A DNA stretch of 64,000 bases, taken from Eledone cirrhosa (taxonomy: Eukaryota). The stretch is from assembly GCA_964016885.1 (NCBI GenBank), contig OZ024751.1, forward strand, positions 1,488,001-1,552,000. Direction: 5' to 3'. The notes beneath the pieces are model-generated. The model saw only the letters and a program-made list of their open reading frames with translations, was not told the DNA's origin and made no database searches. The translations under genes and the position numbers were made by a program. This document shows positions 4,792 to 64,000 of the stretch, piece after piece; within the stretch, counting starts at the first letter, position 1, and each line of letters starts with the position of its first letter.

Positions 4792-4845
4792 CATTCTGAG
4801 GATTGAAAGCAAAACCTTTTGCTTTTAAGAAACCACTGGTAAATG
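4792..4845 (+). ncRNA. Type I hammerhead ribozyme motif
   Basis: CATT-CTGAGGA-12 bp stem II-GAAA-CCACTGG-TA-AATG. Confidence 0.8.
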
Positions 4846-4948: not shown

Positions 4949-5063
<115 letters not shown>

Positions 5064-5912
5064 TAAATTAATATTTGATGAACATTTACATGTTATAGTT
5101 GTAATTGACTAATAAGATCGCTAGAGTGAAAAATCTTAATTCAACAACATAAGGTCTGCCTGTACGATCTAGAAAATAATAAATCAATACTCACAGACTC
5201 ATATGGGCAAAAAGCCTTGGTACCTAGACACGTTTAAAATTCAAAATACAAACTTTTTCCGCAGATCGGTCAGAACTTCAAACTTCAAACATGTTTCACA
5301 AAGGATGGTATAATAGTAAAATAATTAACTAATTAGCAGTGAGTTAATCAACTTTTTCTGTGTTTATCAATAGGTACCCAGATAAAAATAAAAATAAAAA
5401 TAAAAATAAAAATAAAAATAAAAATAAAAATAAAATAACTCAACCTTAGAAAAATATCTAAGGTCTGGTTAGCGTAGCGAAAATACACGAGGTTTTGCAC
5501 ACGGCTTATTCCAGTCCTCTAACGTCCCACACATAGTGCTAGAAATAACAGCCGTTTGTATGGGATTACAAAATTCAGCTCACCTTGGGGAGCAGTGATA
5601 AATAGCTTAGAGTTTAGACTCAGAGAGGTCATTTACAATCATTTCAGCTCTAGGAATCGCTTCTGAGCAGTATAAATTAATATTTGATGAACATTTACAT
5701 GTTATAGTTGTAATTGACTAATAAGATCGCTAGAGTGAAAAATCTTAATTCAACAACATAAGGTCTGCCTGAACGATCTAGAAAATAATAAATCAATAAT
5801 CACAGACTCATATGGGCAAAAAGCCTTGGTACCTACAGTAATTTATACTGCTCAGAAGCGATTCCTAGAGCTGAAATGATTGTAAATGACCTCTCTGAGT
5901 CTAAACTCTAAG

Positions 5913-5920
<8 letters not shown>
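5064..5920 (-). mobile_element. Non-coding retrozyme-like element, 609-bp unit, ~1.3 copies plus an inverted terminal fragment
   Basis: 5064-5226 repeated at 5673-5835; 5840-5920 is the revcomp of ~5598-5678; flanked by (TA)n; contains HHR 5219-5378. Confidence 0.75.
5219..5378 (-). ncRNA. Hammerhead ribozyme, U3-A8 core variant, long stems II and III
   Basis: revcomp GGTACCTA-TTGATAA-ACACAG...CTTTGT-GAAA-CATGTTTGAA...TTTAAACGTG-TC-TAGGTACC (8-bp stem I, ~10-bp stem III). Confidence 0.75.
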
Positions 5921-5972
<52 letters not shown>

Positions 5973-5974
5973 GG

Positions 5975-6011
<37 letters not shown>

Positions 6012-6013
6012 CG

Positions 6014-6047
<34 letters not shown>

Positions 6048-6054
<7 letters not shown>

Positions 6055-6342
6055 TAAAATAACAGATTAAAGTTTAAGCAAAGAATCGCTGCTTTCACCC
6101 TTAACGGGATCTTCTGAAACTAACAAAGTCAATCTGTAAACGCAGAACTGGATATTTCAAAAAACGTTTACAGATTGACTTTGTTAGTTTCAGAAGATCC
6201 CGTTAAGGTTTAAAGCAGCGATTCTTTGCTTAAACTTTAATCTGTTATTTTAATAAATATTTGCTCTACGGTTCTTATATATTTGATATATATTTTCCTT
6301 ACCGAGCCCTCTTTGGATTTTAGTCTTCAATTTTATTATTAT

Positions 6343-8479: not shown

Positions 8480-9363
<884 letters not shown>

Positions 9364-9387
9364 CTGAACAAGGCACTCATATTCGCG

Positions 9388-11184
9388 ATGAATAGGACAG
9401 GCCTAACACGCGACGAGGTCCGAATCATACACGCCGCCAGAAAGACCCTGATCCGATTCGGTGGGGACATATGGACCCGGAGCGACTGGCCAAATAATTT
9501 TGACATTACAATGGGCTCCAGTGACTCCGCGCAGCTAACGGACTTGGTTGGGATATACATACTCTACGAGATCAGGAGAGAAATACCCAACCGAGACGAC
9601 GCACTATTCACCGTAGTGGACCACAGCACCACAATGGTCGAAAATACGAAGAGGAGAATTAGGCACTTCTTTAGCAAGGTAGGACTTAAGGTAGAGATGG
9701 AACCCAATAGAAAAATAGTGAATTTCCTGGACACCACCCTCAACCTCAACACCAAGCTACACCACCCATATCATAAACCCAATGAGAAGCTGGTGTATAT
9801 CAACGCTGGGTCTAATCACCCTAGATCTATAGTTAAGGCCGTAGTTAAGAGTGTCTCTGACAGGATCTCTAACTTGTCGGCCAATAAAGAGATCTTCAAT
9901 AGTAATGCTGATTACTATAACTCAGCGCTAGTTAAGGCGTCCCACAGCGATATGATCAGCTATAACCCTAAGGGACATGATCGAGATGACCCAAGTGTAC
10001 CCCGGACCAATACCCTCAGGGGCATGAGTCGCCCACCTAATACCTCGGTGACCAGTAGTAACACTCCCAGACCCCTATCCGTCACCACCCCCGGTAGAAG
10101 GTCCCGCATACCCCACCGGTCTAATACCTACAACGCTGAAGACCACTGTGCTGCGGAGCATAGGCACCCCTGGACCGGCCCCACAACCCGCCGAAACCTA
10201 ATTGAGCAGGGAGGCCGCACCTCGCAGGTTTATAACCCCACGGCGGGCCCATATAACCCTCATGATAGTGACCGCTCCGCACACCCGAGTGACACCAACC
10301 GAGCTCGACCTGAGCTGTGCACAACCACGCGATGGCCCACGGCGGACACCCAACAACCCCGCAAGAATAGGACCAGGAAAGTCACATGGTATAACCCTCC
10401 ACACTCGGTGGGTCTACGTACCAGCCTGGCTAGAACATTCTTTAGAGTACTGGATAAATGTTTCCCTAGGGCCCACAAGTACCATAAAATATTCAACAGG
10501 CACACAGTGAAACTTTCCTACTCAACCACACGCTCCGTAGCCCAGCACATAGCTGGCATAAATAGGAATAGGCTCACTGCCTCTAATACCACCGTAAACC
10601 TCGGAGCCACCCAACATAACCAGCACGCGGGACGAAACGGAACCCAGACAGGCCCAACTAGCACACCGGAACCCAACGACCTTGTGCTGATTGCGGAGGC
10701 TACCCAGCCAACGCCGAGTGATGGCAACCACGCGGTACATGTGGTGGGGATTAAGAAGTCATGTAATTGCAGAGACCCATCACTATGCCTCCTTAGTAAT
10801 GAATGCATGACGAAATACGTGGTCTACAGGTGTAAGGTCACAACCCCTAACTCGGAGCACCACTACATAGGATCCACAGCGACGAGCTTCAAAGATCGGT
10901 GGTATAACCATCGCTATTCCTTTAGCAGAATAGATAAGAGGAAATGTACGGCCCTTTCTGAATTGATCTGGAAGCTCAAACTTGAAAAGACCCCGCACTC
11001 TCTGGTCTGGTCCGTGGTTAGAAAGGTTCCCCTAGACAGAGGCGGGTCTGGTATTTGTAACCTCTGTCTTAGTGAGACACTCGAGATTCTTCATGGCGGA
11101 ACCCAGCTATTAAACAGAAGGGCCGACTTATTCGGTGCCTGCAGACACCTAAGGACGGGAACTTTCCTCAAGCTATATGGATAA
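9388..11184 (+). pseudogene. Penelope-like element ORF, 5'-truncated RT plus GIY-YIG endonuclease
   Basis: FDITMGS.DSAQL.DLVG, RDD, VNFLDTTLNL, YINAGSNHP, W.NPP, CNCR..LC, VVYRC..YIGST.TSFKDRWYNH, CNLCL.E, CRH. Confidence 0.9.
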
Positions 11185-56700: not shown

Positions 56701-58760
56701 CTGCTAAACACAGAGTTCAAGATTTTGGCCAAGGTGCTAGCAAAGAGGTTGGCGCTTGTCGTTGGTGGTCTGGTGGGAGAGGCGCAGACATACGACAGAT
56801 CCATCCACGACAACCTCCACCTCATGCGATACATCGTAGAGAGGGTAGCTAGGGAACCTGGCACGGGTGGGTCCTTGATCAATTTAGATCAGTCGAAAGC
56901 TTTCGATAGGGTCGACCATCGTTACCTGGCGGCAGTCCTGAGGGCGGCTGGCTTTGGGCCCGTCTTCAGAGGCTGGATCGCTGCCATGCACAGCGACATC
57001 TGCTCTGTGGTGAGAGTGGACGGTCAACTTTCGGAACCGTTCAACATCATGCGCTCGGTCCGCCAAGGATGTCCCCTCTCGTCCCTCTTGTGCGTATTGA
57101 CTCTCGAGCCATTACTGCACAAACTGAAGACGTTGAGGGGCGTCCGCGCGAACTAGGATGCGGAAGATCCGTGTCAACATATGCGGACGATGTCACCGTA
57201 GTGGTGTCGAACGCCAAACACATCGAGGCGATCGGCACTACACTAAGAGAATACCAAGCGGTAACAGGAGCAATGATCAACTAGGAAAAGTCAGTGGGCC
57301 TGCAGCTCGGCACCTGGAGAGGCAGGTCCATGCCGTCCAACAGCGTCGTCGGACGCTGGACGGACGGACCGGTTAAATTGCTAGGGGTCTGGTTCGGTCC
57401 GGACCTCCAGACGGATAAAAACTGGGACGAGGTGACGAGCAGGGTGGCTTCTCTCACCCAGAAATGGGCGGAGAGGAAGCTATCCCTGAAAGGTCGAGCG
57501 GAGGTGGCTAACGCGTACATGGCATCTGTCATCTGCTACCGCCTGACCGTCGTACCTTGTCCTAAGCCCCGCCTGACTGCGCTGGAGCGTTTGCTCTTTT
57601 GCTTTTTGTGGAAGGGACGCGCTCCGATGGTCAGGCGGTCCATCTACTGTCAACACCCGCTACGTGGAGGGCTGGGCATGCCGTGGATGATGATGCGCAG
57701 ACACGCGCTCAGGCTACGACATCTCCACCTCTTCCTCGACGGTGATCAGGTGTGGTCGCCGTTTGCTAGACACGTATTTCCCCAGCTCGTTTCCTTGACG
57801 GAGCTGCAGTCCTGGGTCAAGCGAAGACCGAGAGGGGGCGCCTGGAGACTGGAATGTCTTCAGGCGCTCACAGCCCTCGACCAATCGGGCAATGTGATCA
57901 TGGAAACTCCACCTCGGCGTTCTATAGAGGATTAGTGGAGGGGAAGAGCGACGTCGTACTTGGGGAAAATCTAGGCGTCGACGAAAATCAACTAGCCAAT
58001 CTCTTCGGAAGAACTTTCGGGCCGGGACATATGGACAACTTCCAGAAATCTCTGGCCTGGTAGTGCTACCGAGGAGCCTTGCCAGTTCGGGATAAACTCT
58101 ACAGGCATGGAGGTGCCGTCAGCCGGGCATGTCCGGGATGCGCGTAGGGCGACGAACCGTCCTGCACGCACTCGTCCAGTGTCCGAAAAATGCTGACTTG
58201 TTGGTTTATGTCGAACACCTGCTGTCGCGTGTAGGACGGATCCGGCTATCATCTGAGTCCATCGTGAGGATTGCCCCGCCCTCTTCCTTTAGCCGGGAAG
58301 GGCAGGCAGTTTTTATCTGTCTGGTGGCCATGGCGAAAGAGATAGTATGGTGGACACGTTTGAAAGGGCTGAAAACGAGCACATACCTCTTCGGTGATGC
58401 CCTGATTAACTTTTTCAAATTTCATTTGAAAAGGAAAATCAGGGTAGAGAGGGAAGTGCTCTCTTCCCAGCATACTCTGACTATATATCTGTAAATTAAA
58501 GGTGGAAAACTGGGAGAGGGCACTTGCCTTGGTGGTCAGGGTCACTGTGGCCTTTTACTGGGCTTTCTCCACAAATGTCCCTCCGAAGTCTCCCCCTATT
58601 GGGGAATTTTTCATTGTTATTTTTTTGTTACATCCTCTGTTTTTGTTTTTTACACGCAGAAATGCCCATTTGTACCGTCCTGTATTGTCCTGCACTGTCC
58701 TTAATGTCTACTTTATTATAAACCCTTGTTGTTAATAAATTAATCATTATTATTATTATT
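53051..58760 (+). mobile_element. Near full-length Tx1/L1-clade LINE flanked by (ATT)n
   Basis: ORF1 53455-54712 (CFRCGSKTHLRAFC; internal deletion versus the 33411 copy); ORF2 55136-~58495 (SINARGL, LVGDWN, TDHK, KSPG, RQGCPLS, YADD) with stops/frameshifts. Confidence 0.9.
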
Positions 58761-58761
58761 A

Positions 58762-61700
58762 ATTTTTGAGTCTCAGTCATTGATGTTAGTTAACTGGAAA
58801 GTTTGTTGAAATGAATATCAAGCCACTACCTGCAGCCTCAGATATTCAGGACGTATCGCAGGGTTCTTGCTGTTCCCAGCAAGCATGCCTTTTGGAGCGT
58901 TCCAAAAAGTGTGAAGGGGCCAATTTTCTTTAAACATCCCTGGAAACTTTTTGAGATAGTCCCTAGTGCGCCTATGACAATCGGGATCACTTTGACTTCA
59001 TGGCAGTTCCAAATCCTTTTTACCTCCCACTTTAACTCCTGGTATCGGTTAATTTTCTCCCTCTCCTTCTCTTGCACTCTCGTGTCGAATGGGCAGGCCA
59101 CATCCACAATCAGGCACGATCTTTTTTCTTTGTCCACAACTACCAGGTCAGGCCTATTGTGTTCCAGTTTCTTGTACGTCTGTATCCTAAAATCCCACAG
59201 CACCTTCACCTGATCGTTTTCTATCACCGCCTCTGGCTTATGCTCATACCACTTCTCAGAATGTGGTAAATTGTTTACTTTGCATAGGTGCCAGTGGATC
59301 ACCCTGCCCATCACATCATGTCTCCAGCCCTTATAGTGAGTCTGGGCTAGGTGTTTACACTCGGATACAATGTGAGCCACAGTCTCCTCTCTCTCTCCAC
59401 AGATCCTGCACAGTGGGCTAGCCTCCTCCTTGTAAATGTGGTGTTTCAACCACTTCGTTTTGAGGGCCTACTCCTGCGCAGCCATTAACATTCCTTCTGT
59501 AGCCTTTTTAAGGTCTCCTCTTTTCAACCAGTTCCATGTCTGTGGATCTCTAAATTCTGTTTTCTCAAAGAAGGTACTATGAAGGGATTTTTCCTGAAGG
59601 CTGCTCTATCTCCTTGATGTTATTTCCTCCTTGGACATCCCCTGGCCTATTGTCCCCTCCTTCAGTACAGTTCTGAGCATTGGCTCCTTACTATCAGTCA
59701 CGTATTTGTGTAGGTTGTTTTTCTCCATCTGAACACAGTCCTCTATGCTGATAAGACCTCTTCCACCTTCAGATCTCCTTAAGTAGAGTCTATCGACATC
59801 ACTCCTCTTGTGAAACATATTGTAGATAGTCAATAGCTTCCTAGTCTTGCTATCCATTTCTTTTTGTTCAGCAACATTCCATCTCAGAATTCCCGCACTG
59901 TACCTAATAATAGCTACAGCTCGGGAATTTACTGCGCTTATGGCATTTCTGCTGTTCAGATGTGACTTCAATACGCTCCTTACTCTCCGAATGTATTCAG
60001 TTATTATCAATTCCTTCATTTTTTTGTTCTTGATGTCATCAGCCTCCAGAACGCCCAAATACTTGTATCCTTCCTCAGAGTCAATTTCCTTTATCATCTC
60101 ACCTGTTGGTATCTGGATTCCGTTACTTCTGCTCAACTTACCCGTCCTCATCACAATGACTCCACACTTACTAATACCAAATTGCATACATATATCACTG
60201 CTGAAAATACGGACAGTGTCAACAAGCACATCCAACTCCCTCTCACTTTTCCCGAAGAGCTTAAGATCGTCCATAAAGAGGAGGTGATTGATGGTAAGCC
60301 CTCTCTTTCCCAACCTGTATCCTTCTCTCACTTTTCGCAGTACACTGGTCAGGGGCATCAGGGCAAGGACAAACAACAGAGGGGACAGACTATCTCCCTG
60401 GAAGATACCTCTCTTGATCTTCACGCTTCCCAAGGATTTTCCAGTTGATGTTAACTCTGTTTCCCAGGACTTCATACTTTTGCCCAACAACTGACTGATG
60501 TTATCTGCCACCTTGAAGATCTCCAGGCTTTTGGTGATCCAAGAATGAGGCACCATGTCAAATGCCTTTTTGTAGTCTATCCATCCCATGGCAAGACCAG
60601 TGTGTCTCCTCTTGCAATTCCTCATTACCATCTTATCAATAAGTAACTGGTCCTTTGTACCACGTGACTTCTTTCGGCATCCTTTCTGTTCGTCCGGTAA
60701 CAAGTTGTTTGTGTGGAGGTGATGGTAGATTTCCTCAGACATAATGCTTGTCAACAGTTTCCACATTACGGACAGACATGTGATAGGTCTATAGTTGGTA
60801 AAATCATTACCCTTGATTCGGTCTTTCATTATCAGAACTGTGGTACCCTTTGTCAACCACTCTGGTACCTCACCTGACATCAAGCAGTCATTGAACATGG
60901 TTGTCAGTTTCGGGTGGAGGGGTGTTATAATTGTAATCCAATACCCCTGCACACCATCTGGGCCAGGTGATTTCCAGTTAGTTAGTTTTTTGGTCTGCCC
61001 CTTAAGAGTTTCAACTGTGATACTCAAATCAGTTTGTTGGTGTGCCTGTTCACTGATCTCCTTCTGTACTGTCTCAATCCACACTGCCTAGTCATTATGT
61101 TTAACATCCTGCTCCCATATTCCTCTCCAGAATGTTTTAGTTTGTTCCGCCTCAGGGATCAAGTCGTTGCCTCTTTCTTTCCCTTCAAGCTGTCCAAACA
61201 GCATGTCTGGTTGTTGTCGAACATGCGGTTCTGTCTATACTGGCTGACTCTGTTCTCGTATCGCCTGATTTTTGCACTCTTTGCTACAATGCGTTGCTTC
61301 AGTTCCTCTATGATAATATTTAGCTTTTTCCTCCTAGTTTTGTACTTTATTTCCAGTCTATTTTTAGTGTCTATGTTTTTTAGTGTCCCATTCAGTAGGG
61401 ACTCAAGCTTTCCAATGTCATTTCTCATTTCCCTGATTTGACCACTCAGTCTTTTCTTCCACCAAGGCTCTGCTCTTTCTTGTCTGTTGTTTCCTCTCGC
61501 TTTTATACCAAGTAGTTTCCTCACCGTATTTGCTGTTGCTTTGAGGATATTGTTGCACTGGTGAAGGCTCCTCGCCTCAAGGTATGGGATGACTTTGTTT
61601 ACCTTAGCTGTTGTTTCTTTTAACTTTTTCCTGTCTACAAATCTTAGGTTCATAGGTCTCCCACTATCATTGTTCAATTCGTCTACCACTAAGTTTAGGA

Positions 61701-62105: not shown

Positions 62106-64000
62106 TTGCATTTATCTTGCTTTATGTTTATACGAGTTATCACCAAGTCACAACCAGTGACCTCAAGAGACAACAAGGTCCGCCATGTTCAAGAAAGAAC
62201 ATACATACTCACACATGCATCTTTAGTGTTTAGACTTGTGATGTACTTATATTGACAGAATCTTCCTTAGTATATGGGCAGTTCCCATTAGTACTATCTT
62301 TTGTATTTCTCATATACGCGGGTTTCCTGGGATTTGCGATAAGTAGTCGTTAGACCCCTTAGGTATCATTCCCAGAGCGCCTACAACCACTGGTATTGTT
62401 TTAGTTCTCAATTTCCACATTTTTCCAATTTCTATCTCCAGGTCCTTATACTTGCTCAATTTTTCAAATGTTTTTATAGATACATTCTTGTCTATTGGAA
62501 CAGACATATCAATTAGCAGGCATACCCTCCTTTGAAAGTCCTTCAATATTATATCAGGTCTATTTGCATCTATTTTTCGGTCTGTTTGGATGCTAAAGTT
62601 CCACAAGATTGAGATGTGATCTTTTTCAAGTATGGGAGGTGGTTGATGCTCCCACCAATTCTTTTGATGGGGCAGGTCAAAATGCTTACACATTATCCAA
62701 TGTATGTATTGTGCAGCTCTGTCATGCCTGTTTAGGTATTCGGTTGGAGCTATAGGACTGCACATTGAAATTATATGGTCAATGGTCTCTGGTTGTTTTT
62801 TGCATACACGGCATAATGGGCTGCACCCATTTTTTATTATGTTGGCTTGGTAATTTTTTGTTGGCAGACACTGATCTTGTGCCGATATAATCAGTCCTTC
62901 AGTCTCCGATTTCAGTCCAGAGGATGCCAACCACTGATGGGTTAAAGTTTTGTCAACATCAGGATTATTAGCTCGCTCTGGGTATTTTCCATACAGAGGC
63001 TTTTCTTGCCATTTCTTAGCCAGTTTCTGTAGCAGTTCTTTCTTTGCAGTTACTTTTACCTGCTTTGCTTTTTCTGTGTTTTCCATTTCAGCAGTAAATG
63101 GGACTTCTGAAATTTGTAGTCCATTACTGTATATTTGTGCATCTTTTGTAATGGAATATGATCTTTTGGTGCTTTCGTGTTTCAAAACGAGTTTGATCAT
63201 CCAATCATGTGATTCCCTTAGATATGTGGATAATCCAATTGTTGCAGTTTTCAACGCAATGTCTAACTGGATTAACCCACGTCCTCCTTCTTTCCTAGGG
63301 AGATATATTCTATCTATGTCTGCCTTAGGGTGATGCATTCTGTGCATGGTTAAGAATTTTCGGATTTTTGTATCGAGCCTACGGATCTCTGTGCTTGACC
63401 AGTTGATGACATTGTAACTGTAGGTTACTACTGGTATGGCAAGCGTGTTTATGGCATCGATCCTATTCCTTGCATTCAATTCCGTTCTTAAGATTGCTCT
63501 GACTCTGCGGTAACATTCCTTCCTTATCCTTTCCCTCATTGTCGAGTGCTTGATTCCGTCTCCTTCACAAACACCTAGATATTTGTAAGTTTTTTCTTGA
63601 TCAAGCTCTCTTATCACGTTCCCCCGATCAAGATTAATGTCTGAACTCTTCAGCAGCTTTCCTCTGGTGAACGTTGCTTTGGCGCATTTATCCAGTCCAA
63701 ACTCCATTTTAATGTCATCACTGAACTGCTTCACAGTGGATAATAGCCCTTGCAATTGTTCATCATTTTTTGCAAATAGTTTCAGGTCATCCATGTAGAA
63801 CAGGTGATAATGGTTTTGTCATAGACTCTATATCCATGTTTTGTTTCATTGAGCATTTTACTTAATGGTATAAGTGCGATGCAGAATAAAAGCGGTGATA
63901 AAGAGTCACCCTAAAAAATTCCACAATTAATGTTAACTTCTCCAGCTTCCAGTGATTTTGTTTCACTATTCAAAAGGAGTGTCGTTCTCCATGTCCTCAT
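62106..64000 (-). mobile_element. Second, distinct R4/Dong-clade LINE (3' part; runs off window)
   Basis: FYMDDLKL, YKYLG, CRVC..ETIDHIISMC, RHD, NRPDI, EKLSKYKDL, VVVGALG; (TAA)n at 62090-62105. Confidence 0.9.

Follow-up and report, generated by a model that had tools for sequence, protein, structure and literature searches.

A U3-A8 hammerhead motif in a young, Penelope-type retrozyme of Eledone cirrhosa

A young, non-coding tandem repeat of Eledone cirrhosa, with a unit of 567 nt, carries a predicted hammerhead ribozyme in which the tertiary pair between core positions 3 and 8 is U3-A8 instead of C3-G8. We consider it probable that this state arose by a single compensated swap from C3-G8 relatives, and that the repeat is written into (TA)n tracts by the reverse transcriptase (RT)-endonuclease of a Penelope-like element, from RNA that the ribozyme has cut in part. 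That the U3-A8 hammerhead is real, and that it belongs to a young retrozyme mobilised in the manner of Penelope, is well supported. The variant likely still cuts, as suggested by genomic copies that often start just past the predicted cut.

Results

A hammerhead motif with a U3-A8 core

The window is the whole stretch of DNA that was analysed, 64,000 nt of contig OZ024751.1. Family A is represented by an insertion near 5 kb, which contains the following motif on the minus strand.

5219..5378, minus strand: predicted type I hammerhead motif with U3-A8
5371..5378, minus strand: helix I, 5' strand (partner 5219-5226; 8 bp; two-sided change across families in 5 of 8 pairs)
5364..5370, minus strand: core U3-U4-G5-A6-U7-A8-A9 (UUGAUAA), with U3 at 5370 and A8 at 5365
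5298..5363, minus strand: helix II, 3 bp (A10.1-U11.1), with a 60-nt loop that holds an A/U-rich inner hairpin (two-sided change across families in 3 of 3 pairs)
5294..5297, minus strand: G12-A13-A14-A15.1 (GAAA)
5228..5294, minus strand: helix III, 20 bp in the predicted fold, with a 27-nt loop
5226..5227, minus strand: predicted cleavage site after GUC (C17 at 5227), by hammerhead consensus; 5' ends of arms are enriched in the next 25 nt

Core nucleotides 3-9, G12-A13-A14, A15.1-U16.1, H17 and a Watson-Crick 3-8 pair are all present, in the U3-A8 variant. The original prediction had described the UUGAUAA core, the 8-bp stem I, the GAAA and the GUC as we find them, but its stem III of about 10 bp is too short, since the predicted fold has 20 bp there. 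The predicted fold of 5219-5378 has an energy of -36 kcal/mol (z = -2.99), with 3 of 200 shuffles equally good. A descriptor open to both 3-8 states matches 11 times in the window, whereas 30 block-shuffled windows gave an average of 0.07 motifs each, and on this ground a chance origin of the motif was rejected. Rfam gives no matches at the gathering threshold in the window, and over 5000-6000 none of its hammerhead models reaches E ≤ 10. Folding into the hammerhead-compatible form costs 4.1 kcal/mol relative to the free ensemble, where G12 is paired at 90%; family B, described below, shows a similar gap of 5.0 kcal/mol. The slipped helix II of the minimum-energy fold, which pairs G12, was rejected as the selected structure, being broken in 7 of 22 rows. 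Sporadic decay of a single C3-G8 copy was likewise rejected, since U3-A8 is the state of the whole family.

The family-A unit and its insertions

The unit is non-coding, young, 567 nt long and low in GC (192 G+C in 557 positions, less than 45%), and is found in more than 100 places in the 3.0-Gb genome; a 27-base family marker has 310 exact matches there and its control none. Unit positions are counted from the first base past GUC, which is position 1. The copy in the window is a typical insertion of the family, a minus-strand arm followed by an opposed plus-strand arm.

5064..5835, minus strand: arm 1 of the insertion; 5835 is unit position 1; one whole unit and then on to unit position 163
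5839..5920, plus strand: arm 2, inverted; unit positions 157-238, then (TA)n; includes the 73-nt one-arm 'tail'
5382..5435, plus strand: (ATAAAA)9 expansion, private to the window copy

Because of the (ATAAAA)9 expansion the unit in the window measures 609 nt instead of the 567 nt of the family. To describe the insertions we sampled 57 by position, on contigs C1-C3, from the first 100 of the 310 marker matches. Two opposed arms with ends at 165 and 238 make up 31 of the 57, a single arm 17 and other two-arm forms 9. Arms are 92-100% identical to one natural unit, and 3' ends adjoin A/T dinucleotide runs in 107 of 119 cases. Tandem units follow with a 567-nt period, each with a complete type I hammerhead motif. 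Alleles at seven polymorphic sites agree in 134 of 136 comparisons within an arm and in 73 of 75 across the two arms of an insertion, but in 57% when insertions are compared with one another; both arms of an insertion therefore come from one RNA or one source locus.

Partial tandems, an inverted 5'-truncated copy, a tail at one end and a (TA)n target, all features of Penelope-type insertions, are present. The unit has no open reading frame for an RT with a GIY-YIG domain, and is thus not itself an autonomous Penelope-like element, although it is moved in the same way. The genome is rich in GIY-YIG genes (10,597 candidates, of which 150 were scored). Profile and BLAST searches around 40 GIY-YIG loci, from among more than 10,000 candidates, found no autonomous partner with the family-A tail and returned only neighbouring retrozyme insertions.

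The 3-8 pair across families

U3-A8 is fixed in 68 of 68 cores of subfamily A1 and in 26 of 26 cores of family E (558 nt, 82% identical to A1), so that UUGAUAA stands as the family consensus that had been predicted. Subfamilies A2 and A3 are also U3-A8 (120 pattern matches against 7 in the control, with 30 loci aligned). No C3-G8 core with the family-A helix I occurs genome-wide: the pattern of that helix I followed by G8 gives 6 matches (control 3), all of them U3-G8. Three of the six are family-A copies with a lone A8G, and such single mutants are rare. Core mutations among copies (2 in 552) are not significantly fewer than mutations elsewhere (221 in 31,467).

The other state is found in two families that align with family A through the whole ribozyme. 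Families G (547-nt unit, 83% identical to E and 76% to A1) and F (531-nt unit) are young repeats with a long helix III, found beside GIY-YIG loci, and have C3-G8 in 23 of 24 and 30 of 33 spans respectively, the remaining spans being without a core. In an alignment of seven sequences, one from each of A1, A2, A3, A3b, E, G and F, 96.9% of the cells are paired, and two-sided changes occur in 11 of 32 pairs: five in helix I, three in helix II (all of its pairs), two in helix III, and the 3-8 pair itself, which is UA in five and CG in two. None of 500 shuffles scores as high, a count that is not a p-value because the structure was read from one of the seven related sequences, and slid controls reach at most 2 pairs. 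The compensatory changes thus support three helices around the core, with helix I open. Specifically, the change from A-U to G-C at 10.1-11.1 fixes the hammerhead register of helix II. Within family A1 variation is too low for covariation.

On a tree of 27 monomers (midpoint root, no outgroup), A1, A2 and E, all U3-A8, form one clade with support 100/99, and G, F and B, all C3-G8, lie outside it. Parsimony places a single switch between C3-G8 and U3-A8, on the A1+A2+E branch, and the swap therefore counts as one compensatory change among eleven and not as statistical covariation at that pair. We infer that the direction was from C3-G8 to U3-A8, because the three outside families and the general consensus are C3-G8. 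The natural covariation at 3-8 that the original prediction had drawn from the 31-kb element of the window does exist as an alignable swap, but it is seen through families G and F elsewhere in the genome rather than through that element, and as a single event.

Family D, with a 316-nt unit, has U3 and A8 in all 25 core-spanning rows of 27 aligned; the count was taken from the alignment and a loose core pattern was dropped, as it matched unrelated DNA. A diverged relative of this family is U3-A8 too. Family D gives no alignment with A or B, and its alignment with E was equalled by 4 of 300 shuffles. Because this unrelated family is also U3-A8, two or more independent origins of the swap are likely in this genome. 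We also note that family D (L233:250-600; 3,111 first-look candidates) and a 73%-identical relative (L246:1050-1550) are compact U3-A8 hammerheads with a palindromic helix III.

The related element at 31 kb

The window holds an insertion of family B, a distant relative.

31140..31732, minus strand: long arm of the family-B element, with a unit of about 516 nt; an older family, 85-95% identity
31732..31758, plus strand: short inverted second arm of the family-B insertion
31403..31485, minus strand: family-B type I hammerhead motif with C3-G8; CUGAUGA at 31478-31472, GAAA, GUC, C17 at 31410

This element had been proposed as a homologous C3-G8 sister of the one at 5 kb. With units taken from cut to cut, the segments from cut to tail align with a score of 71 (shuffles 30.6 ± 5.2; 0 of 1000), and the motifs said to be common to the two elements are therefore real. 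The remainder of the unit gives no alignment above chance (24 vs 23.5; 430 of 1000), nor do the ribozyme regions of the two window elements (23 vs 19.0 ± 3.4; 141 of 1000), and alignment in another circular permutation is not significant (57 vs 39.2 ± 6.3, with a maximum of 68 in 200). The ribozyme regions of families E and B align at 38 vs 18.5 ± 3.6 (0 of 1000), with their cores in register. Family E thus bridges A1 and B: the proposed homology holds, but the 31-kb element is a true though distant relative, whose ribozyme aligns only by way of family E. Two further parts of the proposal were also borne out, the similar distance of the cleavage site (238 nt from cut to 3' end in A, 270 nt in B) and the canonical CUGAUGA with its GAAA and GUC. 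The window copy of family B differs from its family by two substitutions and has a weakened helix III (fold z = -0.57); the Rfam hammerhead score of the element is 16.7 bits, at E 5.4. Several subfamilies of B (L044, L139, L160, L220) have changed helix III in a compensated manner, and A-G/G-C changes are seen in helix I.

Arms stop preferentially just past the predicted cut

The 5' end of every arm was mapped, with correction for the number of arms that reach each position. Among the insertions sampled by position, 22 of 86 arms stop in positions 1-25, over an exposure of 1,779 nt, against 64 stops over 25,571 nt, which gives a hazard ratio of 4.9; with 22 BLAST-selected loci added the figures are 28 of 118 arms and 4.8. 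Since arms from the same insertion depend on each other (ends lie at most 25 nt apart in 14 of 41 two-arm junctions), the two arm classes were analysed apart, and 11 of 45 and 11 of 41 arms stop at 1-25, with ratios of 5.3 and 4.5. None of 5000 simulations with a constant hazard reaches the observed excess in any 25-nt window. Counted by insertion, 18 of 57 have an end in positions 1-25 and 7 have one in 26-50, compared with 5 in the last 25 nt ahead of the cut. Arms cross the predicted cut site in 59 passes, so that most templates were continuous there. The end pattern is likely the trace of partial cleavage.

In family B 7 of 39 arms stop there, a weaker tendency that falls short of significance (hazard ratio 2.2, p = 0.055). 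No excess is seen in the samples of A2, E, F and G (2 of 34, 0 of 38, 3 of 34 and 2 of 29 arms), where end mapping is uninformative because the loci were selected for spanning the ribozyme, a choice biased against such ends.

A separate observation concerns the pairing of ends. In 14 of the 41 two-arm insertions (for example L075, L101, L109, L121 and L084) the 5' ends of both arms lie at most 25 nt apart in unit coordinates, at many positions, and look as if both cDNAs had stopped at one template end, or as if one had folded back.

Discussion

A possible route from RNA to insertion

Writing by a Penelope-like enzyme is suggested because the opposed arms ending at 165 and 238 and the (TA)n targets match the two RT start sites and the both-strand extension described for a purified protein of this type. 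The events may then be ordered as follows. Tandem copies would be transcribed, and the transcripts cut at some of their ribozymes. The RNA, possibly circularised, would be captured by a Penelope-like protein, which would nick both DNA strands at (TA)n, and cDNA synthesis would be primed at two internal sites, 165 and 238, 73 nt apart, on one RNA or on RNA from one source. Each cDNA would run back along the unit; about a quarter of the arrivals would meet a cleaved 5' end, and the remaining cDNAs would pass an uncleaved or religated site, in a multimer or a circle, and go on. The two cDNAs would be joined head to head, with a few bases trimmed.

We also entertain a more far-reaching idea, as a tentative one on the doubtful side: that the copies record ribozyme cleavage on the very RNA being copied, with about a quarter of cDNAs ending at the cut. 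An attenuated U3-A8 core, gained independently in two retrozyme clades, would then tune the balance of monomers against multimers and circles, and hence the yield of two-ribozyme insertions able to spread again.

Alternative explanations

The pile of 5' ends could also have arisen on templates that were never cut at this point. The fold would then be real and selected, with cleavage serving only to make monomers and circles before insertion, and the RT, copying RNA that is circular or has not been cleaved, would stall on reaching the base of helix I. The detailed positions speak for this: 2 of the 28 stops in 1-25 are exactly at position 1, most are at 8-19, and the mode, at 8-13, is at the base of helix I, where that helix begins for an enzyme moving 5'-ward. 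The 59 passes that read through point the same way, as do 4 insertions in which one arm stops at 8-12 on its first pass and the other reads through, and RNA that has not been processed is the main substrate in vitro according to the accessible text of Frangieh et al. (2024; PMC11167929). However, just upstream of the cut, within the 20 bp of helix III, the hazard has returned to background (0.35 per 100 nt, compared with 1.24 in positions 1-25), and no pile is found at the other predicted long helices of the unit. Moreover, two family-A arms, that of the window included, and one family-B arm begin exactly at position 1, and the mixed arms are equally well explained by a multimer cleaved at its 5' end. 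We regard stalling as unlikely, and the pile as probably marking the cleaved end.

Another explanation gives catalysis only a minor part: U3-A8 would have become fixed in a single source lineage by drift, and the motif would persist for its fold, as a structural element or one that binds protein. On the tree the swap happened once, both of its changes are transitions of a common sort (C>T and G>A head the mutation spectrum), no canonical contact between loops 1 and 2 was identified, short of a systematic search, and ribozyme mutants did not impair insertion in vitro in the accessible text of PMC11167929. Still, all other core bases are kept in six families, compensated changes at 2.1-1.1 and 10.1-11.1 flank the core, the unrelated family D has also fixed both U3 and A8, and no family is seen with a mismatched 3-8 state, all of which makes drift a quite improbable account. 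The units might, alternatively, be truncated pseudo-LTR fragments of an autonomous Penelope-like element that became tandem later, at the DNA level. Their ends and targets are indeed those of Penelope-like elements, most of whose hammerheads in animals are solo truncated copies (PMC4209133, accessible text). This reading is weakened to the point of being very improbable: whenever an arm is longer than one unit, what follows is again the non-coding unit itself (up to 5.2 units, at 99.8% identity), none of 79 mapped family-A loci enters a coding body, and no open reading frame of 200 aa or more lies over 5064-5920.

Relation to known systems

Natural U3-A8 hammerheads, also in Penelope-like elements, are already known; the interest here lies in the series of alignable sisters and the footprint of ends. 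For the literature that follows we rely on the accessible portions of the cited works. C3-G8 covaries to U3-A8 in several natural hammerheads, and such pairs are active in vitro (Perreault et al., 2011; PMC3088659); these are scattered examples, given in those portions without the history of a retroelement family, which family A provides. Nearer to our case are the Cercyon Penelope-like elements of Schistosoma mansoni, with U3-A8 minimal hammerheads (Cervera and de la Pena, 2014; PMC4209133). As in family A, a natural U3-A8 type I hammerhead sits in an animal Penelope-type element and was missed by the standard descriptor; in Schistosoma about 1,300 matches appeared once the core was changed. 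The earlier remark that a fixed CUGANGA search would miss such a ribozyme is therefore correct and was already in print. Cercyon hammerheads have no true helix III and are believed to work as dimers, whereas family A has a helix III of 20 bp, a helix II of 3 bp with a 60-nt loop and a helix I of 8 bp, which brings it nearer in shape to the large-helix-III hammerheads of fungal and protist elements (PMC4209133). In family A, unlike Cercyon, the sisters can be aligned and the 3-8 switch located on their tree. Penelope hammerheads have been reported without recognisable loop contacts (PMC4209133).

Tandem hammerhead repeats of animals are known as metazoan non-LTR retrozymes (Cervera and de la Pena, 2020; PMC7229834), and have been argued to be non-autonomous derivatives of Penelope (Li, Clavereau and Pollet, 2026; 10.64898/2026.07.22.740005). 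Like family A, they consist of non-coding, low-GC tandem units with one type I hammerhead each. The family-A unit is longer than the approximately 300 bp typical of PMC7229834 and within the 51-972 bp of 10.64898/2026.07.22.740005, and differs from these retrozymes in that its core is non-canonical and its helix III long. The retrozyme features given in the accessible portions of either paper do not include insertions with two arms and fixed 3' ends. Eight of nine frog retrozymes did not cleave in vitro (10.64898/2026.07.22.740005).

The form of the insertions has its parallel in the Penelope-like elements themselves, which leave partial tandems, an inverted truncated copy and a tail at one end, at (TA)n targets (PMC8557442); a purified protein of this type starts from two internal RNA sites, which determine the tail, and extends both strands (PMC11167929). 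Specifically, Poseidon PAc of Anolis carolinensis (Frangieh et al., 2024; PMC11167929) resembles family A in having two internal RT starts that give the tail, both-strand extension, A/T-rich targets and a hammerhead near the RT start region. PAc differs in encoding its own protein and in its tail of 30-40 bp, compared with 73 nt. It differs also in that, in the accessible text, no RNA-seq ends fall at the ribozyme cut and cleavage is dispensable in vitro, whereas the genomic arms of family A show an excess of 5' ends at the cut. Our search, which reached few of the subscription papers, met with no paper that describes either a cluster of genomic 5' ends at the cut of a hammerhead or a 3-8 switch resolved on a tree.

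Six families, all young and high in copy number, have ribozymes that can be aligned base for base and include one compensated 3-8 switch, which makes them well suited to side-by-side kinetics. In addition, the positions at which cDNAs stop offer a genomic readout on whether hammerhead cleavage matters for Penelope-type retrotransposition in vivo. A long-helix-III hammerhead of an animal is seen here to escape both the CUGANGA descriptor and Rfam, and counts of retrozymes in such genomes are therefore low.

Other features of the window and genome

Four more type I hammerhead-like motifs with C3-G8 belong to other repeat families in the window, with cores at 4796 (plus strand), 1749 (minus strand), 36860 (plus strand) and 47766 (plus strand); the motif at 4796 is 270 bases from the family-A insertion. 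An inverted repeat at 6047-6260, with arms of 96 nt that are 98% complementary and 22 nt apart, adjoins (TA)n and is possibly a short two-armed insertion or a MITE. At 43899-46822 a 467-bp unit is repeated, at 99% identity, in two arrays of opposite orientation, and a compact C3-G8 hammerhead motif with a palindromic helix III sits in every unit.

Matches to RVT_1 lie in open frames at 24477-25619 (minus), 40405-42306 (minus; a weak match, E 1e-4), 55981-57156 (plus), 59606-61087 (minus) and 62310-63818 (minus), and an open frame of 654 codons at 9220-11184 (plus) has no Pfam match. Elsewhere in the genome, five loci (L308, L310, L311, L314 and L322) have long GIY-YIG-bearing frames, of up to 844 codons, with hammerhead motifs downstream, and are candidates for young autonomous Penelope-like elements.
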